From: Eledone cirrhosa
Taxonomy: Eukaryota
NCBI GenBank assembly: GCA_964016885.1
Contig: OZ024743.1
Location: 267,468,001 to 267,532,000, forward strand
DNA: 64,000 nucleotides
Direction: 5' to 3'
The notes below the pieces were generated by a model, which made no database searches, was not told the DNA's origin, and saw only the letters and a program-made list of their open reading frames with translations. How positions within the stretch are numbered: the first letter of the stretch is position 1; every line of letters begins with the position of its first letter. Below are positions 7,323-44,103 of the stretch, piece by piece. A program made the position numbers and the translations under genes.

Positions 7323-7423
7323 GAAATTGTTATATAAACAAGTTCTAACGGCTTTAAACTCCTTGTATTTATTTCTCTTATATATATACATATATATATA
7401 GATACATACATACAGGAAGGTAT

Positions 7424-7466
7424 ACGTTGCTGACGATAGCTAATAAGCTTGAAACTAGTACAGCGT
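7424..7466 (+). ncRNA. Minimal hammerhead (family A fragment fused to PLE copy 3)
   Basis: ACGTTG-CTGACGA-TAGCT AATA AGCTT-GAAA-CTAG-TA-CAGCGT. Confidence 0.8.
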
Positions 7467-8324
7467 TCCTTTGTCAGTGTTGAAAAAATTGCAATACTGA
7501 TTGCGGATTTGGTACGGGTGATGAGAAATGTGTCCCGCATGTGCAACCCCGAAGAACTAGAGAGACACATACAACACTTCATCCACCGTATGCAGTTCTC
7601 TGGCTACAATCAGAGAGATAGAATCAGAGTGTATAAAGGAGCCAGAACCAAATGGGAAAAAATGGTAAATAATGACATAAATGGGACCTGCCCCTTGTAT
7701 AGGAGCAAATTTTGGAATAGAATAGAAAGAACTAAGAACAAGGCCAATAGAATAAACTCATGGTATGATAGCAATAAATACCAGAGTGTTATGTTCATCA
7801 ATACAACCCCTAGAGGCGAACTAGCCTACAAATTTAGAAGGGCCCTAAAGAAACATAATCTCAATATTAAGATAGTAGAAAGACCTGGTACCTCCGTAAA
7901 AACACTTATTAGCAAGACATACCCGTTCCAAAGACCCTCATGTATAGATAAGAAATGTATAACCTGTAAAATAAGCCCCCATATTAACTGTAAAACTAGA
8001 AATGTAGTATATAGCATAAGATGTACTGAAGGACAATGTAGAAACAAAAATATAGTGTACATAGGTGAGACAGCTCGTAGTATAGGGGAACGAATAAATG
8101 AACACTGGCGAGACCTCCAAGATAATAAAGAATCATCTGTGCTCTACCAACATGCTAAGATAGAACACAGGGGTAAATTAGAGAGCATAGAAATAAAAAT
8201 AGAATCCACACACAAGAAAGACGCAATGTTTAGGCAAATTACAGAGGCAGTAAGCATAAAAGAATTAAAACCAAAATTAAATAGAAAATATGAGTGGAAC
8301 AGCAACATCACAACTTACAATTAA
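7449..8324 (+). CDS. PLE RT thumb/GIY-YIG endonuclease C-terminal fragment (first ~15 codons derive from the fused family A sequence)
   Basis: 291-aa ORF with VVY...YIGET...R...EH...E...LN GIY-YIG signature. Confidence 0.8.
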   Translation: MKLVQRSFVSVEKIAILIADLVRVMRNVSRMCNPEELERHIQHFIHRMQFSGYNQRDRIRVYKGARTKWEKMVNNDINGTCPLYRSKFWNRIERTKNKANRINSWYDSNKYQSVMFINTTPRGELAYKFRRALKKHNLNIKIVERPGTSVKTLISKTYPFQRPSCIDKKCITCKISPHINCKTRNVVYSIRCTEGQCRNKNIVYIGETARSIGERINEHWRDLQDNKESSVLYQHAKIEHRGKLESIEIKIESTHKKDAMFRQITEAVSIKELKPKLNRKYEWNSNITTYN

Positions 8325-11508: not shown

Positions 11509-14440
11509 TTAGTATCTATCCAGCTGCAATTTGAATGATTCCACACTGCATCCTGATAGATTTTTGACACCTACCGGAATGGAGTTGAATAGTTGTGCCC
11601 CTCGAACCAACAGAGTTGACTCTCGCAGGGTTTTCGCTGCCTGGCCAGCCCTTTTGTTGATTGATGGTAGCTGGCAGCGTCTTCCGTGGCGCAGTGAGTG
11701 GTAGGTTTGATACCAAAGTTTGGCACCTTTTGCTCTATCATTTTCCAAATGTATATAATTCGGTATCGCTCAAATCTTCTTTCTATTGAGTACATCTTCA
11801 AGGTGTTGAGTCTTTGCCAATAGTCCAGGTCCCTCGTTTCTGAGAAGTATGAGGTAACATTTCTTTGGAGCGATTCCATCTTAGATAGTTGGCCCTTTGT
11901 TGTTGGTGACCACAACTGAGAACAGTAGTCAATCCTCGGAAGTACCATACTGTTCCAGAGGGTTTTCATTATTGAGGTATCTCTTGATTTGAAGGTGCGC
12001 AAGATCCACCCGCTGTACTTTCTTGCAGTAAGACAGACTGAGTCAAGGTGTTCTCTGAATTTTAGGCTGGTTCCCATGTGGATGCCTAAATCTTTCACAC
12101 ACTGTTTTTCCATTATTTGTTGTCCTGATGGGTTTCTGTAGTTTGTTGTATTTTTCAGATCTTGATCTATTCCGTAGCGAATTAGTTCAAACTTCTTATC
12201 ATTGAACAATATGTTGTTTGTTTCCTGCCATTTGTATATGGTGGTTAGGTCCTTTTGTAAGGCCTCTGTATCCACCTCGTCTTTGATTTGTCTCATGACC
12301 CTGGTGTCATCAGCAAAGTATGAGACGTTGCTGGTTGTATCTTCATCTATGTCAGAGATGAGGATGAGAAACAGGATCGGGCCGAGTACTGTACCCTGAG
12401 GAACACTGGTGGTCACAGGTGATGGTGCTGAATGGGTTCCATTCACAGTGACTGTTTGAGTTCTATTTGTAAGGAACTCATGTATTGATGTACCAACTTT
12501 TCCTCCTACTCCTAGCTTTCGAAGTTTGTGTCCCAGGATGCCATGATCTACCTTGTCAAATGCCTTGGCAAAGTCGAGGTAAATAACATCTGTGTTGTAT
12601 CCATTCTCTTTCTAGGATTTGGTCATGGTGTGCCAGTAGTTGGGAAAGACATGATCTACCTAATCTGAATCCATGCTGATTGCAATTCAGATTGTTGGAT
12701 TCCAGGAACTCAACCAGTTTTCCACGAACTATTCTTTCGAAGACCTTGATAATGTGTGATGTCAGTGAGATTGATCGGTAGTTCTTTGGTTTTGATTTGC
12801 TGTCCCCTTTATGTATTAGATTTATGTGTGCTTCTTTATATGTATTTGGTATTTTGCCATTCTCCATAGATTCCTTCCATATCATGTAAAGGGGTTTCAA
12901 CAATTGTACCTTGCAGTTTTTAAGTATCATGGCATTGAAACCATCAGGCCCCGCAGCCGAGTGCATGGAGAGCTTGTCTATGGCTCTTACTATGTCTTCT
13001 GGGTTGAAATCAATGTCGGATAGGGTAGGTTTTGTATGGTCGATATCCTTGAAGAATTCTCCTGGATCTTCATGGTTTTAGATGGCTCACTGAAGACACC
13101 TTCATACTGTTGACCCAACATTTCTGCCATTTCAATAGGGTTATTCACTACATCCCCATTTTGTCCCTGGAGAGGTCCTATTGTTGACGTGGTATTCGAG
13201 TATTTCTTTGCAAAACTGTAGAAACATTTTGGATTTTTCTTGATGTTTTCTATGGCTCTCTTTTCTGCATTGTTACGTTCTTCATCATAGTGTTGCTTTA
13301 GATTGTCTTCTAATCTGTATATTTGATCAAGGACTTTCTGTAGTTCATTTTTTTTTCATGTCAGCTTAGATGTTTTGTTTCTTAGTCTTGACCTTTTGCG
13401 CATCTGGATCTTTCGCTCCCGTGGTACAGGTTTTTTTGTGGATTTGGTTTTCTTAAGAGGAATATTTTTTGCATATATTTCTTCGACTTGTTTAAGAATT
13501 TCTTGTGTTTATCTGGCCCAGTAAGGTAGAGATCCCAGTCAAAGATTTGTAACTGGTTGTTAATAGTTTCCCAATTTGCCTGGTGATAATCATACCTGCA
13601 TAGCTTTGGCATGTCCTTTTGTTTAAGAGTTGTGGCATTGGGCCCATTACCAATGTGTAAATGCATTTCAATAATATTGTGGTCTGAAAGGATTGTTGGG
13701 GTTGAGTGAAGGTCAAATAGCGTGTCCTCGTTGTTGGTGAAAACCAAGTCGATCGTATTATTATTTCTAGTTGCTTCTGTCATCATTTGTTTGAGGTATA
13801 ATTTCTCTGTGACTTCCAACAGTTTGGCTGCCTGTATTTGTTCGAGGTTGACTTTACCTTTCATCCTTACGGGGTCGATAAAATAAAGTACCAGTAATGC
13901 ACTGGATAATTGCTGGCCTTGTGCCTAAAGTAGAAACATGTATTTGTTCAGCTTTTGTCCCCAGTTTTAGTATGTGTCCATGTGGCCAGATGATGTTAGG
14001 GAAGTTGAAGTCACCAAGGAGGATAATGTCTGGCATTGGACTCGCCATGTTTCCCAGAATTTGTTGGAGCTTTGTCAGTGGCTCAGTGAAGGATAATGTT
14101 GGGCTTTTTGGCGGTCTGTACATTATTGTTACAACTGTATTAAGTTGGATGATTTTTATGCACAACAGGTTGCAGTAGGCATTTGATTCATTGACAAGTT
14201 CTATGCATGCATAGGTATCATGGATATACACGATAACGCCCCTATGGGATCTGCCTTGTCTATCACATCTGAAGATGTTGAATCCATTGATTGAGATTTC
14301 GCTGTTGCGGATGTTTTCGTTGAGATGACTTTCAGTAATTCCAATTATTTTGGAGTTGTTTTCTATTGCTAATTCTTCCAAGAAAGGGACTTTACACTGT
14401 TTTATTTTCGGATAAAGACCCTGGATATTTGCTGTTATTA
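11509..14440 (-). pseudogene. LINE ORF2 (APE-RT), frameshifted and SINE-interrupted
   Basis: Fragments 13854-14381, 13382-13843, 12556-12966, 11571-12446 and 11509-11748. Confidence 0.88.
13844..13938 (+). mobile_element. 5'-truncated MetaSINE-like SINE inserted in LINE ORF2
   Basis: Core CCTTTCATCCTTACGGGGTCGATAAAATAAAGTACCAG. 11-bp TSD TGTATTTGTTC at 13833-13843 and 13939-13949. Confidence 0.88.
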
Positions 14441-14455
14441 TGCTTTTTGTACCGG

Positions 14456-15235
14456 TTACATCTGCCCTATTGTTGGCAAGACTGTTGTAGTTGCTGGGAC
14501 TGTGCTGACTGGATATTCGGTCTGCTGGGCTGTCTGTATTTGTTGTATGTGCCCTGTAAGTCCAGGTGTCAGCCTTTGTATCAATGTTGCCAGGTTTTGC
14601 TGAGTCATCTGTATGGAGTACAGCTGTTGTTGTAGTTGGTAGATTATGCCTAAAAAACTGCTTTCATTCATTACTGTATGGAATTTCTGCGAGTTTGGGT
14701 TTGTTACAGCTGATGTGTGCAATTGAATAGCATGATTTTCTTTCACTGTTGAACCATGTCTTGGTTTCTGCATTTTTGGGAAGTGGTTTTCATACCCTGC
14801 TGAGTTTGGTCCTGGTGGTATGGGTTCAGTAGTTTTTATGCGAATTGTACCCTTCCGGTGCATAAATTTGCAATTCTCGTCAAAACATTCTTTTTTTCTC
14901 AGCGAATTGCGGCACATCTTTGGGTGAAGGAGTTCACATTCTCGGCCATTTTGGCATCCTTTTTTTCGATCAGTACCGAAGTTGATATATGGTTTGCATG
15001 GTTTGGGGTGACTGTACGTGCACCCTTTACCTGAAAGACCATGTTTGCACTTGTTGCTCCTGTAATGGATACATACTGGCCTTTCTTCATTTGAGCGTTT
15101 GCTCTGAATTTGTTTCTTTTCGTGGGAAGTTTGGTCTTTTTCAATGATGATGACGATAATGACGACGATGATGGTGATGGCAGTGGGTCTATTAGTTCTT
15201 TTAGCTGCTGATGTGAATGTTGTAGTTGTATCCAC
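14456..15235 (-). CDS. LINE ORF1 with three CCCH-type zinc fingers
   Basis: CIHYRSNKCKHG..GCTYSH; CKPY..GCQNGRECELLH; CRNS...CFDENCKFMH. Confidence 0.75.
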   Translation of the reverse strand: MDTTTTFTSAAKRTNRPTAITIIVVIIVIIIEKDQTSHEKKQIQSKRSNEERPVCIHYRSNKCKHGLSGKGCTYSHPKPCKPYINFGTDRKKGCQNGRECELLHPKMCRNSLRKKECFDENCKFMHRKGTIRIKTTEPIPPGPNSAGYENHFPKMQKPRHGSTVKENHAIQLHTSAVTNPNSQKFHTVMNESSFLGIIYQLQQQLYSIQMTQQNLATLIQRLTPGLTGHIQQIQTAQQTEYPVSTVPATTTVLPTIGQM

Positions 15236-17682: not shown

Positions 17683-17802
17683 ATATACGGAGGGAGATCG
17701 CGATTCTCAATTATAAATCGTGAAAAATCGAATTCCAATATAGAGCAATATATATAGATAGATATCCATTTACATAGATATATACATAAACATATATATA
17801 TA

Positions 17803-18790
17803 CCTCTGATGGTGTCCAGTAGAGGTAAGGGGGACATCAGTCTATGCATTTCAGGCTTGACTGGCCTTCGTCAGGATGGTCCCTCCCACCGCTTGCTACA
17901 CCTGGACTTCAAAGCAGTCGAGAATATATAGTTTCCTGGTCTGTGTAAATGAGGTGATTAATCTCATTTGCATATGAAGCTGCATAAGTTGGCTCAACTT
18001 ATAATAGAAAAAAATAAGATTTCGCTTCAAGCATAGCTTTATACAATATGTATAGAAATGTTGTATTTCTAAAGAAACACGGTTTTAGGAAGCCGTAGCA
18101 ATGCAAACACCGGGGCTAACGCCATCTGGTGGTGGCCCGCAGGAGCAGGGGGACAACCGTCTATGCATTTCAGGCTTGACTGGCCTTCTTCAGGGCGGTC
18201 CCTCCCACCGCTTGCTACTGTTGGGCTTGAAAACTTTCGGGAATATATAGTTTCTCGTTTGTGTAAATGAGCGGTGGGAGGGACATCCTGACAATGGCCA
18301 ATCAAGCCTGAAATGCATAGACGGTTGTCCACCTTGCTTCTGCTTGACACCACCAGAGGGAGTTAGCCCCGGTATTTTCACAGCTACGGCTTCCTAAAAC
18401 CGTATTTCTTTAGAAATACGAAATGTCTATACATATTCTATAAAGCTATGCTTGAAGGGGAAATCTTATTTCTTTTCTATTATAAGTTGAGCCAACTTAT
18501 GCAGCTTCATGTGCAAATGAGATTAATCACCTCATTAACAGACGAGAAAACTATATATTCTCGACTGTTTTGAAGTCCAGCAGTAGCAAGCGGTGGGAGG
18601 GACTGTCCTGACGAAGGCCAGTCAAGCCTGAAAGGCATAGACGGTTGTGCCCATTGCTTCAGCTGGACACCAACAGAGGGCGATACCTCAGTTTTGCATA
18701 GCTACGGATTTCTAAACCGTATTTCTTTGGAAATACGAAATTTCAATACATTTTGTATAAAACTATGCTTGAAGCGAATTCTTATTTCTT
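17803..18790. mobile_element. Retrozyme-like family B: ~320-nt tandem monomers in two divergent arms, four hammerheads
   Basis: HHR cores at 17849-17874(-), 18168-18193(-), 18288-18313(+, mutated) and 18608-18633(+): CTGA(C/A)GA-AGGC CAGTCAA GCCT-GAAA-TGCA-TA. Period 319-320. Inversion junction at ~18271. (TA)n flanks. Confidence 0.88.
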
Positions 18791-18801
18791 CTCTCTCTAT
18801 A

Positions 18802-18903
<102 letters not shown>

Positions 18904-18998
18904 TGTGTGTGTTTTTGTGAGTGTGTATATATATGTGTATGTGGATATACATATATACATAATAAATGATTAATATATGTATATAGTATATATATTGA

Positions 18999-24946: not shown

Positions 24947-24991
24947 TATGTATATATATATGTATGAATATATATATATATATGTATATAT

Positions 24992-25947
24992 ATAGCGATA
25001 TATATGTGAAGAAAAACATAGAATATTCGAAAATATTCTGTATGTTTATAATAAACATTTTGAAGAGCCGGCTACCGCTCTTTCAAACCAGTTCCTGTAC
25101 ACAGCTAAGTATTCTATAAGTCTCTAGCTGTGTCGTTCTCGATAAAAGCATTGGATATGTAATCCTGATGATTTCTAATAAGAATGAAACGCGTAGATTA
25201 CTTCCCTTGCTTTTATCGAGAATCTCAAATTGTAATACGTGACGTATTCTATTCTATAGCGATTGGCTCTTCAAAATGTTTATTATAAACATACAGAATA
25301 TTTTCGAATATTCTATGTTTGTCTTCACATATATATCGCTATTTCAGAGCATTAAATCCAAATTCTAATTTCTGCCGGACCGGCTACCGCTCTTTCAAAC
25401 CAGTTCCTGTACACAGCTAAGTATTCTATAAGTCTCTAGCTGTGTCGTTCTCGATAAAAGCATTGGATATGTAATCCTGATGATTTCTAATAAGAATGAA
25501 ACGCGTAGATTACTTCCCTTGCTTTTATCGAGAATCTCAAATTGTAATACGTGACGTATTCTATTCTATAGCGATTGGCTCTTCAAAATGTTTATTATAA
25601 ACATACAGAATATTTTCGAATATTCTATGTTTGTCTTCACATATATATCGCTATTTCAGAGCATTAAATCCAAATTCTAATTTCTGCCGGACCGGCTACC
25701 GCTCTTTCAAACCAGTTCCTGTACACAGCTAAGTATTCTATAAGTCTCTAGCTGTGTCGTTCTCGATAAAAGCATTGGATATGTAATCCTGATGATTTCT
25801 AATAAGAATGAAACGCGTAGATTACTTCCCTTGCTTTTATCGAGAATCTCAAATTGTAATACGTGACGTATTCTATTCTATAGCGATTGGCTCTTCAAAA
25901 TGTTTATTATAAACATACAGAATATTTTCGAATATTCTATGTTTGTC

Positions 25948-25951
<4 letters not shown>
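24992..25951 (+). mobile_element. Family F retrozyme: ~2.8 near-identical 312-nt tandem monomers with three hammerheads, plus inverted 5' piece
   Basis: CTGATGA at 25165, 25477 and 25789: GTAATC-CTGATGA-TTTCT AATA AGAAT-GAAA-CGCG-TA-GATTAC. 24992-25069 is inverted. (TA)n on both sides. Confidence 0.92.
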
Positions 25952-26044
<93 letters not shown>

Positions 26045-26261: not shown

Positions 26262-26620
26262 ATATAAATGGAATAGAATGAAAAGAAATTTCATTTCTTA
26301 CTCTTAGTACTGCAGTTACTAAAATGTTTCATTCTATTCCATTTATAGTTTTCGGTGCGCCCGGCCGATTAACTCACTCGATATGCAAATTGGGCTGCTT
26401 AGCCGTTAATATGCATAAGGAAAGTATATACTTTCAGACGTTCAACCATCTGGCAGGAAGGTATACGATGCTGACGATAGCTAATAAGCTTGAAACTAGT
26501 ACATCGTTACTGTGTCAGTGTTGAACAAAAAGGTGACGAGGTTGCCTAAACACTGTACGGCGTATTTCGGGCATTATAATAAATGTTCGGTAAACCGATA
26601 CGTGCATATATATATGTGTG
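26262..26620 (+). mobile_element. Retrozyme-like family A copy with short inverted left arm
   Basis: ATGCAAAT 26383, TATATA 26425, HHR 26465-26507 (stem I ACGATG/CATCGT perfect; helix III ACTAGT; GUA). Confidence 0.85.
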
Positions 26621-26717
26621 CATGTCTGTATATATATACATACTACTGTACGTCTGTATATATATATGTATGTACGTATATATACATACTTGCATATATA
26701 TATATATATATATATTT

Positions 26718-30395: not shown

Positions 30396-30899
30396 GAACT
30401 AAGGGCAGTTAATCGAATGGCTCCAAATCAAAGCTAGGTGGCGTGATCTTCTACATGGCCTCCCACCAGAATTTTAGAAAAGGAAATAAAAATCGTTTCA
30501 TCGGACCATGTATGTAGAAAAACGATGAGCAACTAGCAAAAAGCCCCAAACCAAGGAGCAATCAGCCCAACCGAGCATGAAGGGCACAACAAATTTCAAA
30601 AGAACATATGAAACAAGCATGCAAGAACGAGAAAAAAAAAAAAAAAAATGTAAATACAATTTTTAAAAGTTCAAATAGTTCAAATAGAAAATACAGGATT
30701 AAAGCGCTGCACAATCGCAGCTTAAACATATACAGTGCTACACAGTGTTTTGCAAAAAGGGTCCAGTGGCCAGTTCATATAATAAAAGTTTGGAAGAGTT
30801 CTTTGGGCCAGTGGACTCATCGACCGGAACGGGTCGTGGTCTTGTATCTTGGTGATTTGGCAAAGAAACAGGTGTGTGTGCAAAAGAGAAAGACAGGGT

Positions 30900-32900
30900 G
30901 TATGAATCTAGCCGTTATGAGTGTTACTGTGGCAGAAGATCCTGGATGTGAAATGCCGTGTAAAACAAGAAACACAGTTCGACGATCGTTCAACGGAACA
31001 AAAGGGCGTGGCGCATCCAAAGAGACATCGCAGAGGATCCGTCCGTCTGCGGTCGATAATGGTAGCTATTTCATCCTGCAATTCACACATTCAGACGATG
31101 TAACATCCAACGATTCGAGGGTAGGCTGATCGGCTGCCAAGCGATTCAAATCTATGTCATCGGACGCCGAGATCGAAGCAATCGGCAAACGAGACAGGGC
31201 GTCGGCCGCTGTATTCATAGAACCCGGAATATGTTGAATATCATTAGTAAATTTAGAGATGAGGTCGAGATCTCTAGTTTCTCTGGGCGAGTATTTGTCG
31301 GCCTTTGCTTGCAAGGCGAATATCAACGGCTTGTGGTCCGTGTAGATGGTGGACGTTCTTCCTTCAAGCATGTGCGAAAAATGCTTCACCGATAAGTATA
31401 TAGCTAACAACTCCCGTCCAAAGGTGCTGTAGCGGGTTTCGGCAGGTTTCAGCTTCCTGGAGAAAAATTCCAACGGTTGCTGTTGATCATTAGCTGCTTT
31501 GTTGCAAAACTGCGCCCACGGCAGTATCCGACGCATCAACACAAAGCGAAAGCTTAGCATTGGACACTGGGTGAGCCAGCAAAGATGCATTGGCTAGAGC
31601 AATTTTCGCATTCTCAAAATCCTCGAGCTGAGTTTCATTCAAAAAATGTCTTTATTTTTCTTTCGGCAATTTTTCAAAATGTCCGTCAAAGAGAAGAGTA
31701 GCTTATCACAATTAGGCACAAACCGCCTATAAAAGTTAATCAGCCCCAAGAATTGGCGCAACTGACGGAGTGAGTTCGGTGGAGGCAAATCCTCTATAGC
31801 TTTAACTCTCTTAGGATAGGTCGAATCCCGTCAGAGTCAAAGACATGACCTAAAGAATTCAGTGATTCCGCACCGAAAACACATTTTGTGGGATTTATTT
31901 GAATACTGTAATCCTTCAGTCGACAAAACAAAAGATTCAAATGACGTATGTGTTCTTCTCTGGAGGAACTAGCAATAAGCAGATCATCAATATAAGTGTA
32001 GACGAAGTCGAAACCACGAGTGATCTCATCCATGAACCGTTGAAAGGTTCTAGCAGCATTCCTAAGTCCGAAAGGCATGGGAAGAAATTCGAATAATCCA
32101 AATGGAGTCGTAATGGCCGTTTTCGGAATATCTTCTTTCCTGACAGGAATCTGATGATAGGCTCGCACCAAATCGAGCTTCGAGAAAATTTTACATCCCT
32201 GCAACGACGATGCAAAATCATGCAGGTGTGGAATAGGGTATCTATCCGGGAGAGTTATAGCATTTAACTTCCTATAATCGCCAGTGGGTCTCCAGTCGCC
32301 AGAAGTTTTGGGTACCATGTGTAACGGAGAAGCCCAAGGGCTCGTAGAAGGGCGAACTATGCCAAGATGCAGCATGGGGTCGAACTCGGACCGTGCTGCC
32401 TTCAATTTGTCCGCAGGCAAGCGACGAGGATCGTGAGAACACTGGGGCGCCAGTTGTAGCGATAAAATGCTCCGTTGTGTGAGTCGGTTCGACAACTCGA
32501 AAATTTTCCTGAGTAAGCTGTGGGAAAGAATTCAACAATGCATGATAGGGATTCCCAGCATTAGCGATGAAAAAGGTCGGGCTAACCGCTGGAAAATTAG
32601 CTTTCTGGCCACAAAGAAAAAAAAACAGTAATGTCGTCTACTAGGCGTCGGCCACGGACGTCCACGGACGTCCACCGTCGGCCACGGACGTCCACCAGAG
32701 GAAGCGAGATTTGTCCAAAGGTCCGTATCGGCGAATGATTGACAGCTTGTTGTAGATTCATTGATGACTGAGGAGGCGTTACTGTCATACAATTGACAGG
32801 CCAAATACTGCACGAAGCTCCTGTGTCTACGAGGAAGGCTCTTCCAGACAGGAGGTACTCTATGAAGAAATGGCGGTTCTGTTGTGTCTGGCAGAATTCA
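30900..32900 (-). pseudogene. pol: Gypsy pol (PR-RT-RH, frameshifted; integrase deleted)
   Basis: [55 protein letters not shown]. Confidence 0.9.
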
Positions 32901-32910
32901 CTTGCCGCCT

Positions 32911-33705
32911 TTAGTGACTCTGATCTACATTTCCCGAAGCTGAATATTTACATGGAGGCCGGCAATGTTTTGCCTTCTCCGCGAAGGTGGCATGATACCA
33001 GCAAAATAATGGATTGCTGGCGGGCGAAGTGGTATGCCGACGTGGAGTCGCGAAAGAACGCGAAATACTCCTAGGCCGCCGGGAATACGGCCTATTCTCC
33101 CTGCATAACCGAGCGACTTGCTGCGTCAAAGCGTCAATAGCTTTTAACATGGCATCCTCGCGTGTCGAGACGGGCTGGTTCGAATGTGAAGAAGAAGCAA
33201 CACACGAGTCCGGGTCGGTAGTCTTTCTAGAAAATTCCACGATTCGATCAGCGGAGGCAGCAATCTGCTCCAAAGAACTGGTATCCACAATGTTTGCCAA
33301 GATAATTTGGACCTTGTTTGGCAGGCGAGAGAAAAATAGTTTCTTTATGAATGGGCTATCTTTGTCTGTCGAGTCGCTGAGGTCCCTGATGTGTAGCAAA
33401 AATTCAGACGCTGTTCTGTCACATAAACACACGTCATCCAACAATGAACGAAATCTGCTTTCAGCAGAACGACTGTTTCTTCTTAATATTTCTTCCCGTA
33501 ACGAATCATACGAAATACCGGCCGATGGGTTCGTTATCAAATCCTTCACCGTTGTAGCGAGTGAAGAAGGAATGCCGCTTATCAAAACGTTGAGCTTCTG
33601 CTCTGTTTTCCCTCCGTTCGCAGCGAAATATGCGTCGAGTTGTGCAAACCAGAGTTTGAGTTCACCTGAGAACGCAGGTAAACTAGGACTACTCATCATT
33701 AGCAT
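32911..33705 (-). CDS. gag: Gypsy gag
   Basis: LPAF...LWFAQL N-terminus and CWYHATFAEKAKHCRPPC C-terminal motif. Confidence 0.88.
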   Translation of the reverse strand: MLMMSSPSLPAFSGELKLWFAQLDAYFAANGGKTEQKLNVLISGIPSSLATTVKDLITNPSAGISYDSLREEILRRNSRSAESRFRSLLDDVCLCDRTASEFLLHIRDLSDSTDKDSPFIKKLFFSRLPNKVQIILANIVDTSSLEQIAASADRIVEFSRKTTDPDSCVASSSHSNQPVSTREDAMLKAIDALTQQVARLCRENRPYSRRPRSISRSFATPRRHTTSPASNPLFCWYHATFAEKAKHCRPPCKYSASGNVDQSH

Positions 33706-36700
33706 GTATCAGTTCTACATAAAAAATACTAAATGATATCCAAGTAAAGAAATGCAACGCGTGTTAGATGTTTGGAACAATGGGAAAACTACACAAATTT
33801 CCCTCAACATCCATGAAGAAAGAAGAAATGCAAAATCCGGAATCGACAAGTCACAATTATTCAAGGCAGAAAAATTAAATGTTTATTATTTTTTTTTAAT
33901 TGGAGAAGGAGATGGCATCACATGATGCGTCTCAGCCAATCATACGGCCGCATTTCGGAGAAGAAAGACAATTGGCAGGAAAATTGGTGGACCAGTCAGC
34001 CATTGTCAATTTTTTTTTTTTTTGTGTTAAACGAACAATTTTCAATTTCTTTATTTTCGCATAGTTGCAAGAAATAAAATATTAGTTTCGTCAATTTTTT
34101 TTTTATGTTTCTCTAGACATTTTTAGAAGTATTTTTTAGAAGGCTCTGTATTGCATAATCGGGCGGGGTCAACCACTTTAGGAGAGATGGTCACCATTTT
34201 AGAAGGCTGCGTTGTTTTACGATTTAGAGAGGAGTTCGTTTCCCTAGCTTGGCTGGTAGAACATCTCTTCTATTTGTTGTTAGGTGTAGGTAAACAATTA
34301 AGCAAGAAGAACATACCTCGAGATTATATGTACATGAGCATTTTAATCAGAGCAATAAAGAAAACCGGTTATCATATCAGTTGCTCCTTGATTGGTAATT
34401 CGTAATTATCATTAAGTGGCGGTGTTCAATTATCCCGTGACCGCATGGTGTGATATCGCTATTTCGCCACCGTGAAATGCGTCTGCTCGCATCAACACAC
34501 AAAGTTGAAAAGTGTGTATTCAGCTACTGACGTCAGAACGTGACTTCAGAACTAAGGGCAGTTAATCGACACCCTCCAAAGTCAAAGCTAGGTGGCGTGA
34601 TCTTCTACATACTTATACATAATGGTTTCTGATTTAGGCACAAGGCCAGCAGATTTGGGGGTGCGGAAAATCGATTAGATTCGATTTATATAATAATAAA
34701 ACACATACACACGCACAATGAGAATTACACGAGTGATGGAATCTAGAAGGCGACAATACTGAGAATTATGTAGTGAAAAGTATATCATTGCTTCAGAATT
34801 CAAATCTTACCGAGGCCTGAGAACGGTCATGTGCAATGACTTTTTCTCTCAGCCTTAACATATGTATGCATATTATGTATATATACGTTCAGCTCGATAT
34901 TCATTAATAGATTATTTACCAACGTACCAAGACGAATGTGTGACTGTACTTGGATACTTGGATTTACGGAGAGAACGTAGCTCATATCATTAATTCATAA
35001 ACTACAAATATCCGCGATATCATGAAACTTGAAAATTCGCAAAATATTCTCTTGATTTAAAGGATGAAAACTTATACAAGATAAGGCGTCAGTTTTCTCT
35101 TTCTTTACAATTGTTCCGCTTGGAAAGTGTCCGGTCAAAAATAAGCTGAAAATTAAGTGAAAAAGATACCTACTTACACACACACATGATGATGGCTGCC
35201 CCCTCGTTATCGAGTGTGGCCATTGCACGATATAACATTATTAATAATATAATATTAAAAATTATTAATTAATGCTATCGTGCAATGCTTGTGCGTGAAG
35301 GTTTTTTTTAAAGTGAGTAAAGACTGTGCACTGAGCCAATCCCACTCCCTGAGCGAGAGTAGCTATAACCCGAAAAGAAAAAAAGATCAACATCATCGGT
35401 ATCTACTGAACCGCAGGTTTTATGTCGGAGTTATCACAGTTTTCTGAGTTGCCTTCTCCTTGAAGAATGCCATGACAAGTGCTAGGGTTCTTCACTCCCA
35501 GTGGTTTAACTACAAGATCTATTTCCCCTCGCATATACATACACATGCATACATGTGTATACATATTTAAACATTTTTGGATGGCCGTTGACTCTTATGA
35601 GTACTTCCGCCCTTTGTCAGGTTTTGTTTTTTGTCCTGCAGGGTGTCTAAAACCACCCTTCTCACCAAGTAAACTTGGTGGGGTTACCGCTTTAGTCGCC
35701 GACGACCCGACCATGCGACAGGTTGTACTGTGTTACATGTTACCAGTAGCACTCGAGAACGACCTGACATACATACATACAAACACACAAACACACATAC
35801 ATACATAGATACACACACACACACACATACATACATACATACATACATATCTTACAAGGATATTTTTCATGTGTTTCTCTTTTAGATTATTTTTCCTTAT
35901 TTGTCGCTAATAATTAATTAATGGCTCGTTTGGTTCCTTGTTTTCGAATCTACCCGACCTCTAATATGTATATATCTTTTCCACATTTATGTTCCTTCCT
36001 AACAAATATAATATATTAAAAACATGCAAAAGAAATTGAAAAAATAAATGTTTGAATGGCAAAACGATTACTCAGAAACACGGTTAGTCTTATTAGCACA
36101 CATAATTATACATATAAACTTTATTAGTGATTCAAACAGACAAACTCTCGTATACATAGGCACCCAAGATCACACATATATACATGCACTTATAACAACA
36201 CATGCGTATTACTTCCTTATTTGTGTACTAAATATTCAGCACTCATTGACGTTCAACTAGTTTGGTCTGGTCTGGTCTGGTCTGGTTGTTTTAATATCCT
36301 AGCAGCAATGTCAGCATTAGGAAAGAGAAAGATGCTGTGTTTATAAAAGAACATTATTTCCGCTTCCGGTTCACTGGTATCTTGCATGACTGTGAAACAT
36401 AAGTATAAAGGGTGGTCTATGCAAAAAATTAAAACAGAAAGAATAATATATAACCAAAAACATGTTAATAGATTTAACATAGCATAGATGTGACTAATTA
36501 TCTATTTATCTATACTATATAATAATTTCTAAGCAGTGCCACATAGCTAAGACATTTGAGGAAGATGTGTAGACAAATTGATCCATCAAAGGAACATAGA
36601 GGCATTATTATATTATATACGTACATGGTTGTGTAGTTAAGGAGATCGCATTGCAAATACGGGGTTTCCAGATTACTCCCACAGGCTGTCAAATTGAACA

Positions 36701-38585: not shown

Positions 38586-38627
<42 letters not shown>

Positions 38628-39167
38628 AAAGAATAGAGGTGTAACACACAAGTTATTATATATTGGTAAACGGAATAGAAAATGCTGACAAATTGTTCAC
38701 AGTTGAAAAATGGTTTAATTAGGAATAAAAGAGTATTAGTGATTGTATGGGTTAGTATTCATTTGTTGTTTTAAGTTTTTAAGTTTTTACCGGTTGCGCA
38801 TTTCTAAATGCTTTTCAAAAATAATTTTGAGATAGAGTGTCCGTGCTGTTTGCTCTGATCTGATTAGTTTTGGGAATTCTACCTGTTTTTATGTTAAAAA
38901 AGTGGCTCCAGCGTTATTTTTGTGTTGCAAAAATGCTTGTGGTCAAAACAATTTTGATTGGTCGGTAGAGGTCATGTGAATGTAAAAAGTTGATTTTGCG
39001 CCAAGACTGTTTTTATGTTACAATGTTAAAAAAGTGGCTCCAGCAAAAATTCTTGGTCAAAACAATTTTGATTGGTCGGTAGAGGTCATGTGGATAAAAA
39101 ATTGGTTTTGCGCCAAGATTGAGAAATGACTCTTTCACAACAAATATGTATGTGTGTGTGTGTATGC

Positions 39168-39215
<48 letters not shown>

Positions 39216-39584
39216 AGTAGTAGTAGTAAGGTGTTCGATGCTGCGACAATGGCCAGCAGCGATGTGTGTCAAATGGCTATTACGATAAGTGTGTGTGTGT
39301 GTGTGTGTGTGTATATAGCAGAGTCATTCGAAGGTCAAAAGATATTTTTCAGCTTTTGTCTTATACGGAGAAGTGCGTGTGTGTGTGTGTGTGTATAAGT
39401 CTCTTTGTATGTTGATGTACACGTGTGTATGTGTTTGTGTATATATATGTGTGTGTGGGGGTGGGGGTGGACCAGTATTTTTTACCCCCTGGCAAAATGG
39501 TGTACATTATTCGATTTTTTCAGTAAAATCGGTTCTCTTAATAGAACATCAAAAATCTTAACAATAAAAGGTGTGAAATGATAT

Positions 39585-39634
<50 letters not shown>

Positions 39635-39817
39635 TGTATTCACTACATATATATATATATATATATATACATATATACATACATATATATGCACACATAT
39701 TTTTTTGTATTGCACCATAGAGCATGTGTGTTTACGTGTGTCATTATGTTTATATGTGGGTAGAGATGTGTGCTGATGTAGGTATGTATGTTGACGTGTG
39801 TATGTTGTGGGTTCGTC

Positions 39818-42135
39818 CTAGGGAGAAGTGTTTAGACGGGGTCCGTATTTGTTAATGAAGTAAGATTCCTTGCTGATGCGCTGGGTGTGGGTGGCATTAT
39901 CTTTACATTTGTAGATGGGAAAGATTCTGAAGTTGGTATGATTTTGGGCGGCACAGGTATCAATGTGTTCACTCAGTGGTATTTTCCTGTATTCCCGTAT
40001 TTTAATTTGGGATCTATGGACAGTCATGCGTTGGCGGAGGCTGTTTTTGGTCTGGCCTATGTATTGTTCTCGACAACCTGAACAAGTTAATACATATATT
40101 AGATTTTCCGATGCACATGTGAAATTGTGTTTTACTATAAAACGTTGTCCATCTTTGAAATAGAATTCCGAACCCTCTATTAGGTTGATGCAAATGCCAC
40201 AGTTGGGTCTATCGCATTTTTTTACTGTGGGTTTCGTTGTTGTGGTTGGCAGTACTTTGGCATGTGTTAAGATGTTTTTCATTGACTTGGATTGTCTTTT
40301 GCTCTTTATGATATCGTGTGTTCGTAGAATTTGGTTCATTCTATGGTCCTTTTTCAATACAGGGATGTTCTGGAGGATGGTGTCAAAGGCCTCATTGTTG
40401 AGGGGGTTGTGTGTGGAGATGTATGGAAGAGCTTTTAGTTTTGGTTGATTTACTTTAGGGTGTCTAAGGTCCTGGGTACTGAGTTTTAGGGCACGTTGGA
40501 TTCCATTGTCAATTAGTGATGCAGGGTAGTCCCTGCCTATGAGTGTGTCCTTTAGTTCTTGTAGCCGTAAGTAGCAGATGTTTTTATTGGAGACTATAGT
40601 ACAGATTCTCTTGGCTAAGTTGTAGGGAATATTAATTTTAACGTGTCTAGGGTGGCAAGAGTTGAACGGGAGGTATTGCTTGGAGTCTGTGGGCTTGTTG
40701 TCTGTTTCTATTTTTTTGTTATGGATCTTAATGAGGATGTCGAGGAAGGGGAGTTGTTGATGGCTGTATTCCATCGTGAAGTTAATATTTGTGTTGAGCC
40801 CATTTATAAGGGTGTGAAATTCTTTAAGTTTTTCGATGTATTCGTGCCAAAGGATGAAGCAGTCATCTAGATATCGCTTCCAGTTCCTCTCAATGTGTAA
40901 GTGGAGGGTGTTTCCAAATTTGTTTAGGACTTTAGTGTAGAGGGTGATTTCCAGGTATCCCATGACTAGGTTGGCATAAGTAGGGGCTGTTTTCGTTCCC
41001 ATAGCGGTCCCAGATTTCTGCCTGTAGGGTTTGTTATTGAAAACGAAGTAATTGTTCTCCCAGATAAATTTGAGTCCCTCTATCACGAATTCTTTTTGAT
41101 GCGTTGTGGGAGTTCATTGTGGAAATTATCCAGCCAGAATTGGATAGCTTCTATTCCTAGGTTGTGGGGGATGTTGGAGTATAGGTTGACTACATCGAAC
41201 GTCACTAGTAGGGTTTGTTCAGAAAGTGGCATATTAGGGAGGTGATTGAGCATATCTAGGTCGTCCCTTATATAGCTTTTGATGTGCTTGAGGAAGGGTT
41301 TGAGAAGGGTATCAATGAAGTTGCTAAGACGGTGCGTTTCGCAAGCGGGGCCTGCTATTATAGGTCTTAATTTGAGATCATTGGGTGAGGGGACATTGAT
41401 GACTATGTCTGTGGCTTCCTTGCATGCCTTACTGATTGATTCGCTTTTATGTACTTTAGGGATACCATAGAAAAGGCTGGATTTACTTGTCAAGTCAGTG
41501 ATGAAGCTGAATTCCTTGTTAGTGAGTCCTTCTTTGTATTGGTTGATTAGAGTTTTTAGGTTTCTCATAATTTTCTGTTGATTGTAGTGTTCAGCCTTTT
41601 CGTAGTATGTTTCGTTTTCCAAAGTGGAGAGCGCTAAGTTGATATAGAATTCTGTCTCCATTAGGACTACTGTACTCCCTTTATCAGCCTCTTTAATTGT
41701 AATGGTTCTGTCGGTTTTTAATCTATTTAATTCTTCCCATTCTTTCTTGTTGAGGTTTGGCTTGTGTTTTTGTCTGTGCAAGTGTTGGTAAGGGAAGTTT
41801 GTGATGTGTTCACAGAATTCGTCCAGGATTTTATTTCTACCTTTTGAAGGGGTGTAATTGCTTCTATTTCTGGCTAATGATTCATCCTCATTGTACTGGT
41901 CGAATAGTTGTTCACTAAGTCGTAACTTTCTACAGAAGTCTGTGATGTCTTCCTTCATTTCATAGTAGTTAGAACGTAGTGGGGTCGGTGTGAATTTAAG
42001 ACCTTTGGAGAGTAAGTTGAAAAGGTTGGGTGTTGGTTCTGCACTAGTAAGATTGATAATTTTTATTACTATCGGTTTCTCCTCCCTGTCTTGTGTTATT
42101 TTGTTTGCCTGTATCTGTGTGCTGTGTCTAAAAAA
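39818..42135 (-). CDS. PLE RT + GIY-YIG endonuclease (one frameshift at ~41085)
   Basis: LLSKGLKF, EADKG, FYGIPKVHK, LRPII, FDVVNLY, GTAMGT, WKRYLDD, LPFLD, KCDRPNCGIC linker, LIYVLTC..C..QYIGQT. Confidence 0.9.
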
Positions 42136-42301
42136 TGGTTGGGGTAGAGGGGTTGTCTGCTGATGTTAAGTGGTCTCCTGTGTTTGTTATATTCCTTGTT
42201 GTTGTAAAATGTGGTTCGGGTTGGTGGTTGTAGATTGAATGGGGTGTTCCTGTACTGCGAGTATGGGTGTGTGTTTCTATGTGCCATGTTGTATTGTGGT
42301 G

Positions 42302-43405
42302 TTATAAGTGGCCTACGTTGTTGGTTGTATCGTGTGGTGTGGGTTTGTGTGTATTGTGGAAGTGAGAGTTGAGAAAATGGTAATTACCTTGCTGTCCCCT
42401 TGAAGCGGGGAAGTTGTTGCATCTATCATGGCGGTGGTATCTTTTCCCTATGTTTGACGATGAGGAATCCGCGTAGTAGTTGAGTGATTTGGTATGGTGT
42501 CTCCTTGAAGGGGGAAAGTTGTAAATGTCATTCTGGGGGAGATGATTTCTTGGGTTTTTGTTCCTTCTTATGGTAGCGAGGTTGGGAAGTTCATCTTCGG
42601 TGTGGTGCTTCCTTCTTCGTTTGTTTGAGGCTTGGGGGTTTGAGAAGTTGTTGTGCGGTTCAGTTATGAGTTTTCCTATTTTTATGAACGGGTTATTGAA
42701 GGTGTAATCCGTTTGAAAAGTCGATTCATAGTGTAGGAACCAAGCGGCACTTTTTTCCCAGCGTTGAAGGGATTTCAGTTCTTCTCTGTTGCAGTCCCCT
42801 TTCCATAATTTGGAGATCTTCTCTACCTTGGGGCCTTCAGTTTTGTTGTTGATTTCCAGGAGGATCTCTTCATCGATGGTTTTGATTTTTTCCTCATTTG
42901 TCTGGGCCCTCAGTTTAAGAAGTTCAATTTCTGTCTTCATTTTTTCCAATGCCATTCTTTCCCTAAGGTGTCTTTGAGGTTCGGGTTCATTTGGAATGGA
43001 CTTTATTTGTAGTTTACGGGGGAGAGTTAGAGGGGTTGAGTTAAGCCATTTTTCATATATCTCTGCTTTGTTGTGATTTTGTATCATCTTCCAGAATGAG
43101 AACTTTCTGTCTCTGAGGGATTTGTTCCATTTTGGAATTGTTCGAATTTTCATTTTGTGTGAATCAATCTCACATGGTTCTTCGTTGGTTTTTCCTGGGT
43201 TGGTAGTAGTGAACATAGTTTGGATAGTATCGCAAAGGTTTTGGAGTTTGTCGCCGATTTCGGAGGGATTGTATCCGGTGGCGGTTTCCTTATTTGTGGA
43301 GTCAAGTTTGTCGACCAGCAAAGATAGGTTGGTGTTGATTTTCTTGAGTTCCTGTAGGATCTCTTCATTTGAGTTGATGAGGGTTGTATCCGTTTTTGTT
43401 GGCAT
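42302..43405 (-). CDS. PLE upstream ORF (coiled-coil-like N-terminus, H/N/P-rich tail), function unknown
   Basis: 367-aa ORF starting just inside the 5' pLTR boundary. Confidence 0.7.
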   Translation of the reverse strand: MPTKTDTTLINSNEEILQELKKINTNLSLLVDKLDSTNKETATGYNPSEIGDKLQNLCDTIQTMFTTTNPGKTNEEPCEIDSHKMKIRTIPKWNKSLRDRKFSFWKMIQNHNKAEIYEKWLNSTPLTLPRKLQIKSIPNEPEPQRHLRERMALEKMKTEIELLKLRAQTNEEKIKTIDEEILLEINNKTEGPKVEKISKLWKGDCNREELKSLQRWEKSAAWFLHYESTFQTDYTFNNPFIKIGKLITEPHNNFSNPQASNKRRRKHHTEDELPNLATIRRNKNPRNHLPQNDIYNFPPSRRHHTKSLNYYADSSSSNIGKRYHRHDRCNNFPASRGQQGNYHFLNSHFHNTHKPTPHDTTNNVGHL

Positions 43406-44033
43406 TTTCTGTATCTAGTGTGAGGATATGATAGTTAAAAAAATAGAGGTGTAACACACAAGTTATTATATATTGGTAAACGGAATAGAAAATGCTGACA
43501 AATTGTTCACAGTTGAAAAATGGTTTAATTAGGAATAAAAGAGTATTAGTGATTGTATGGGTTAGTATTCAGTTGTGGTTTTAAGTTTTTAAGTTTTCAC
43601 CGGTTGCGCATTTCTAAATGCTTTTAAAAAATAATTTTGAGATAGAGTGTCCGTGCTGTTTGCTCTGATCTGATTAGTTTTGGGAATTCTACCTGTTTTT
43701 ATGTTAAAAAAGTGGCTCCAGCGTTATTTTAGTGTTGCAAAAATGCTTGTGGTCAAAACAATTTTGATTGGTCGGTAGAGGTCATGTGAATGTAAAAAGT
43801 TGATTTTGCGCCAAGACTGTTTTTATGTTACAATGTTAAAAAAGTGGCTCCAGCAAAAATTCTTGGTCAAAAAAATTATTTTAGAAAAGCATTTAGAAAT
43901 GCGCAACCGGTAAAAACTTAAAAACTTAAAACCACAACTGAATAATAACCCATACAATCACTAATACTCTTTTATTCCTAATTAAACCATTTTTCAACTG
44001 TGAACAATTTGTCAGCATTTTCTATTCCGTTTA

Positions 44034-44103
<70 letters not shown>

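Follow-up and report, generated by a model that had tools for sequence, protein, structure and literature searches.

The interval 17803–18790 of the window analyzed here, a 64,000-nt stretch of Eledone cirrhosa contig OZ024743.1, is very probably a real, decayed and previously undescribed member of the non-LTR retrozymes, designated family B. The explanation that we favor with considerable confidence is that this locus is a mutated copy set in (TA)n, left by one old insertion carried out in trans by the RT/GIY-YIG protein of a PLE, and that it probably yields no monomer today. Across the family, copies are frequently arranged as two head-to-head arms whose outer ends cluster at two fixed points of the repeat unit, usually with one arm at each.

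Results

Architecture of the element at 17803–18790

The element is composed of two divergent arms of one ~320-nt repeat, with TA-rich tracts on either side (Table 1). The left arm contains monomer positions 211 to the end, one full monomer and positions 1–40, and the right arm contains positions 271 to the end, one full monomer and positions 1 to ~155. The outer end of the right arm lies at the U-rich end site described below as site B and continues into (TA)n; that of the left arm lies at position 40, an uncommon end site that is distinct from the second major site, A. The inverted pair of arms is ~84% identical, the unit measures 319–321 nt, each arm holds 1.5–1.6 units, and GC content is ~43% over aligned sites.

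Four hammerhead-like cores begin at 17874 (−, CTGACGA), 18193 (−, CTGAAGA), 18288 (+, CTGACAA) and 18608 (+, CTGACGA), and downstream of every one come a 15-nt stem-loop II, GAAA, a short palindromic helix III and AUA. Every full monomer contains an octamer together with a TATA element, the right-arm octamer being mutated. A sequence-only reading of the window had described four hammerheads in ~320-nt units with an octamer–TATA cassette, about 1.5 monomers per arm, and adjacent monomers that had diverged, unlike those of a second hammerhead family in the window, family F. All of this is borne out: the four cores are type I-like, cut-to-cut spacing is 319 nt in the left arm and 320 nt in the right, and segments of the element differ pairwise by 8.5–15%, against 99.6–99.8% identity in family F.

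No frame of at least 120 aa lies inside the element in the open reading frame list, and one frame (18574–18969) exits the element into the microsatellite. TRF listed no array of ~320-nt period at the locus. Nothing in the window reached the Rfam gathering score, and relaxing the cutoff to E=10 brought up no hammerhead family, only microsatellite-driven matches. A relaxed hammerhead scan passed three of the four motifs, L_outer being the exception, and the strict scan passed one. Since Rfam is blind to these motifs, the hammerhead call is built on core motifs and pairing.

Table 1. Features of the family B element and its flanks, in window positions. Cut sites are predicted.
Feature	Positions	Strand	Remarks
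Left TA-rich flank, likely target	17738..17802
Left arm	17803..18271	−	469 nt, ~1.46 monomers
Hammerhead L_outer	17837..17880	−	core intact; stem I 3/6 pairs; predicted cut after 17843
Left cut-to-cut monomer	17843..18161	−	319 nt
Only intact octamer + TATA cassette	17923..17973	−	octamer 17973–17966, TATA from 17930, offset 43 nt
Hammerhead L_inner	18156..18199	−	core intact; one C-A mismatch in stem I; predicted cut after 18162
TATA upstream of L_inner	18242..18249	−	its octamer removed by the junction
Head-to-head junction	18270..18271		2-nt overlap
Right arm	18270..~18790	+	~521 nt, ~1.62 monomers
Hammerhead R_inner	18282..18325	+	G8>A; U-U at stem II base; 1-nt stem I deletion; nominal cut after 18319
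Right cut-to-cut monomer	18320..18639	+	320 nt
Right cassette	18511..18559	+	mutated octamer 18511–18518, TATA 18552–18559
Hammerhead R_outer	18602..18645	+	core, stem I (6/6) and stem II intact; helix III palindrome broken (U15.2>G); predicted cut after 18639
Right flank	18798..18901		(TA)34 then (AG)18

Condition of the four hammerheads

The family majority hammerhead is complete in its core, stems I and II, helix III and AUA, and pairing across 24 copies is retained in 93% of 621 cells, compared with 32–53% for slid controls. With a palindromic helix III of 2 bp, it agrees with the canonical type I hammerhead of metazoans, described as cleaving weakly alone and better as a dimer (PMC4209133). 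Among the four motifs of the locus, L_inner is the best preserved, and R_inner is likely dead, a G8C change being known to abolish cleavage in a PLE hammerhead (PMC11167929). Two consecutive units with complete hammerheads, by which a 2026 preprint recognizes an 'active' element (bioRxiv 10.64898/2026.07.22.740005), are absent here, where R_inner carries G8>A and stem I of L_outer retains three of six pairs.

The junction removes the whole upstream cassette of R_inner as well as the octamer upstream of L_inner, and the only intact cassette faces L_outer and 40 nt before the TA flank. Both inner hammerheads thus lack a full cassette, so that any monomer made here would depend on an outside promoter. 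A read-through transcript is predicted to fold as a long hairpin with 84% of its bases paired. Cleavage at successive AUA sites had been proposed to release a ~320-nt monomer; given lesions in all four hammerheads, the cassette loss at both inner ones and the hairpin folding, such release from this locus appears unlikely.

Dispersion, divergence and decay of family B

The right arm as query gave 3,372 first-look candidates in the 3.0-Gb genome and a query near the family majority gave 3,214, with 40 scored in each case. The genome contains 108 exact matches to a 35-mer core, on many contigs, and 0 to its reversed control, which argues that the repeat is not due to chance. Many pieces related to family B were also present in one sequencing run (contigs, small word share). 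No young copy was seen among the 40 scored candidates of the near-majority query, where the best non-self long match was 96%, and neither a long nor a homogeneous array of family B was encountered, with 886 nt as the greatest arm length among the copies seen. One family B insertion is repeated seven times, 58–106 kb apart, at 143.3–143.8 Mb of one contig (L067–L073; G000 C1), likely as a segmental duplication.

Over 30 loci (101 segments) the distance to the majority sequence is 5.8%, and copies diverge by 9.3% within a locus and 10.7% between loci. Segments of the same arm share 16.6% of derived variants, those of opposite arms 13.5% and those of different loci 3.8%; the highest value in 300 permutations was 6.6%. 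Concordance at 14 diagnostic sites, which like the majority reference were derived from these same 30 loci, is 87% within the same arm, 84% between opposite arms and 56% between loci; a few loci (L006, L030) look mosaic at these sites. By these comparisons, the copies within an insertion likely derive from a single template or source, with ~4.6% of subsequent drift in each.

Mutations are found at 26 of 592 core positions (4.4%) and at 912 of 17,398 others (5.2%; p=0.40), and 35 of 54 cores are intact. Compensatory changes were seen in none of 27 pairs (24 copies) and covariation gave no support for the fold, so that the structure is drawn from pairing and core motifs. The differences between monomers, as judged from these sequence comparisons, look like neutral decay after insertion. 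The divergence of adjacent monomers emphasized by the sequence-only reading is real and behaves like neutral decay with age, and family F is most simply regarded as younger than family B. CpG decay is weak, with transitions at 5.5% of CpG and 4.3% of other G/C positions, and CpG-based dating was left aside for this reason.

Arm ends cluster at two sites, and paired arms mostly use one of each

Head-to-head arms were found at 18 of 30 loci ranked by similarity, at 14 of 22 picked by pattern (30 loci minus 8 duplicates) and at 23 of 40 further loci, for a total of 55/92. The first of these sets is biased because it was ranked by a query ending at site B; the fresh 40 loci were taken in order from the 35-mer match list, skipping those at or beside earlier loci, and were chosen for a perfect 35-mer. 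A tail-to-tail arrangement was seen once (L066) in the first 52 loci. Most arm junctions abut within 6 nt, without a spacer.

The outer ends cluster ~40 nt apart, at site A ~115 nt and site B ~155 nt downstream of the cut. Of the 63 arm 3' ends in the fresh set, 54 lie at site A (100–128 nt after the cut) or site B (140–168 nt), windows that together make up 18% of the monomer, and 5' ends are scattered. The 3' ends continue into (TA)n in 33 of the 63, and such tails blur end positions by several nucleotides. Ends similar to the position 40 end at 17803–18790 were found at a few loci (L019, L084, L152 and L171). Where both ends could be classified, one arm ended at A and the other at B in 30 of 35 pairs overall: 16 of 20 in the first sets (p=0.005; windows 105–128 and 144–168, with another end in 12 of 32 pairs) and, for the fresh loci, 14 of 15 (p=5e-4; another end in 8 of 23 pairs). 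The two-site end pattern is a property of the family, and 17803–18790 itself combines site B with the uncommon end.

Neither arm of 17803–18790 lies wholly within the content of its partner, which implies that each was copied from a template longer than itself. Such a template would be circular, or else a multimer left uncleaved and spanning ~1.8 units or more, and either one RNA or two sister RNAs would serve.

These features match the 'tail' pattern of PLEs, in which insertions carry inverted 5' copies, often a 30–40-bp tail at one end, and a bias to (TA)n and other microsatellites; the origin of the inverted and tail structures is named as unresolved in that account (PMC8557442). In work with a purified PLE protein, both strands of AT-rich targets were nicked and extended, reverse transcription had two start sites that bound the tail, the protein is predicted to be a dimer, and uncleaved RNA was used in vitro (PMC11167929). 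The inverted 5'-truncated copy typical of PLEs is represented in family B by the same 55 of 92 loci.

The octamer–TATA cassette and host small RNA genes

Host U6 genes (L031, L032 and the array on C19) and the RNase MRP gene (L126) carry an octamer at −76 to −78 and a TATA element at −30. In the top U6atac locus (L121), an octamer variant with one mismatch takes the same place. Two further U6 loci, four further U6atac matches and the five array copies with an interruption lack the octamer, and it was found at that place in 0 of 10 U1 and 0 of 3 U2 loci among those listed. The U1 and U2 loci (L051–L060, L127–L130) have in common a different motif near −56, and several have TATA near −30. An identical 12-mer is shared by U6 (L031), MRP (L126) and family B. 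Within the window, 30 octamer-like words occur, five with TATA at 40–50 nt, and three of these five lie within hammerhead elements. The tandem U6 array (L033–L050; G000 C19, ~31.78–31.84 Mb) has a ~1.8-kb spacing, and in the five fetched copies its promoter is interrupted just upstream of TATA by other sequence. A third hammerhead family in the window (26326–26671 and 1736–2115), unrelated to family B by sequence, also places an octamer and TATA ahead of its core, at an offset of 42 nt (26383 and 1793).

By its layout, the family B cassette resembles the upstream Pol III arrangement of host U6, U6atac and MRP genes, and this U6-like cassette is a putative Pol III promoter. The octamer–TATA offset is 43 in family B and 46–48 in the host Pol III genes, 3–5 nt longer, and several U1 and U2 loci also have TATA near −30; these two points weigh against a firm assignment of the polymerase. 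The predicted transcript start is the 5' side of an extended helix I. Site B coincides with a T4 run and might mark a Pol III transcript end, and since T4 runs occur in the monomer, Pol III transcription would need read-through. The cassette suggests how such elements get transcribed.

PLEs and other elements of the window

Family B DNA was present in 0 of 30 GIY-YIG loci and 0 of 10 young-PLE loci taken from more than 10,000 candidates, so no autonomous partner was seen among these, and tblastn with the window PLE gave only one copy, ~1 kb from locus L002. Ten open frames of at least 150 aa lie downstream of family B arms.

Among the PLEs of the window, either an inverted 5' piece is present or the ends lie in (TA)n. 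The one at ~38600–44100 (−) encodes RT, a CxxC motif and GIY-YIG over several frames, has an inverted 5' piece, (TA)n flanks and terminal repeats of ~450 nt that are 98% identical, and was negative in a hammerhead scan. At 7413–8324, a 76-nt hammerhead piece of the family found at 26471 is fused directly to the 3' part of a young PLE, a junction that possibly reflects a template switch between retrozyme and PLE RNA; comparison of the ORF at 7440 with a PLE N-terminus yielded no match. This young PLE has 41,069 candidates, with top matches 97–99% identical, open frames to ~1,300 aa, many opposite-strand pairs and a minimal hammerhead of its own.

Family F (24990–25960) has a type I hammerhead in a 312-nt unit that is present 2.9 times, together with a 78-nt inverted 5' piece and (TA)n flanks, which is the family B architecture in young form. 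Beyond the octamer and short AT-rich words, family B showed no useful similarity to family F or to the 26471 family. The window also contains a broken LINE-like element with APE endonuclease and RT (11571–14663, −) and a broken LTR-type element with RT and RNase H (30581–33708, −), both by Pfam.

Discussion

Comparison with known systems

Family B shares with the metazoan non-LTR retrozymes (PMC7229834; bioRxiv 10.64898/2026.07.22.740005) a ~320-nt non-coding unit of ~43% GC, a type I hammerhead with 2-bp palindromic helix III, a partial tandem arrangement and a PLE-rich genome, and it conforms to the description of a non-LTR retrozyme unit as 150–450 nt in tandem with GC below 45%. Unlike them, its arms hold at most ~2.7 units and are apparently old, and ~60% of sampled loci are head-to-head with fixed, paired end sites. 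In the preprint, retrozymes are proposed to be non-autonomous PLE derivatives from co-occurrence and sequence trees.

With PLE insertions (PMC8557442; PMC11167929; PMC4209133) family B has in common the inverted 5'-truncated copy, (TA)n targets and two end sites ~40 nt apart downstream of the hammerhead, as in the PLE tail. It differs from PLEs in having no ORF, a canonical rather than minimal hammerhead, and a small-RNA-gene cassette. Poseidon PAc showed no strand difference in start site in vitro (PMC11167929), whereas the paired arms of family B mostly differ. Opposite-strand hammerhead pairs 100–700 bp apart were already noted in Schistosoma (PMC4209133). Small-RNA-type promoters of their own are likewise carried by other hammerhead repeats, of snRNA-type Pol II in newt satellite 2 and of Pol III in the schistosome (cited in PMC2220036 and PMC6765202); unlike these, the family B cassette is like that of host U6 and MRP genes, and its copies are short, dispersed insertions.

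In the literature searched, which included few subscription papers, no report was found of the paired-end-site pattern or of a host-matched U6-type cassette for retrozymes.

In LINE-1 twin priming, cDNA primed by both target strands gives rise to an inverted 5' piece. The arms of family B differ from that outcome in overlapping in content and in both ending at fixed RNA sites, and contiguity between an arm's outer end and its partner's inner start is lacking.

Alternative explanations

Were the locus an active source, it would be transcribed and cut at successive AUA sites to release monomers of ~320 nt, linear or circular. The left arm, with both catalytic cores intact at a spacing of 319 nt, would be compatible with this, the majority monomer circle is predicted at −106 kcal/mol compared with −69.5 ± 5.5 for 60 mononucleotide shuffles, and related elements yield circular RNAs in coral, mussel and axolotl (PMC7229834). 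All four motifs are lesioned, however, neither inner hammerhead retains a full upstream cassette, a read-through transcript would fold into the hairpin described above, and the cores bear no sign of selection; for Xenopus only one of nine dimers was cleaved in vitro (bioRxiv 10.64898/2026.07.22.740005). We consider an active source very improbable. The private nature of most differences between monomers, which are equally frequent at catalytic and other positions and break pairs without compensation, speaks against a heterogeneity that preceded insertion, through a heterogeneous source array or RNA switching, and that would be no measure of age. The few mosaic loci and a same-arm concordance short of 100% could be accommodated in this way, and yet a long or homogeneous array that could have served as such a source is missing among the copies seen; we regard pre-existing heterogeneity as quite improbable, if slightly less so than activity.

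The head-to-head structure might alternatively be attributed to independent insertions of the two arms into one (TA)n hotspot, or to a fold-back DNA copy. Tracts of (TA)n do attract many elements, as illustrated by the unrelated PLE near L002, but the sharing of haplotypes by opposite arms well above the between-loci level, the close abutment of most junctions and the non-random pairing of A with B ends all argue against separate events, and a simple fold-back is excluded at 17803–18790, since neither arm is contained in the other. This reading is largely refuted, and of all those weighed here we hold it to be the most improbable.

A model for family B insertion

The single PLE-mediated insertion favored above can be laid out as a scheme in which the polymerase, the cleavage, the form of the template (circle or multimer) and the identity of the enzyme are what we infer, whereas the anatomy, the dispersion, the clustered and paired end sites, the variants common to both arms, the neutral-looking mutations and the motif match to host Pol III genes are observed. 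A tandem source copy would be transcribed, likely by Pol III, from the U6-like octamer and TATA just upstream of a hammerhead. The read-through RNA would either remain multimeric or be cut at AUA, probably by paired hammerheads, and circularized. A PLE protein would then nick both strands of a (TA)n tract, and each nick would prime a cDNA templated by the RNA, with site A typically used by one nick and site B by its counterpart. The two cDNAs would stop at variable points and be joined head-to-head, and the product would afterwards decay neutrally, by ~4.6% per copy.

A more specific proposition, which we judge to be evenly balanced, is that family B is a retrozyme with a host U6-type Pol III cassette whose copies preserve a record of how PLEs insert, and that one PLE complex, likely dimeric, primes from both (TA)n strands at two staggered sites, ~40 nt apart, of a single RNA that is circular or multimeric. 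The locus at 17803–18790 is itself an ordinary decayed copy, and it is the family-level pairing of end sites that is worth pursuing; the one-A-one-B pairing is a prediction that could be tested in the existing in vitro PLE assay. The insertion structure of family B lends support to the proposed use of PLE machinery by animal retrozymes, beyond the co-occurrence and trees of the preprint. If the proposition is true, the inverted 5' copy and the one-sided 'tail' of PLEs would be two results of one coupled event.
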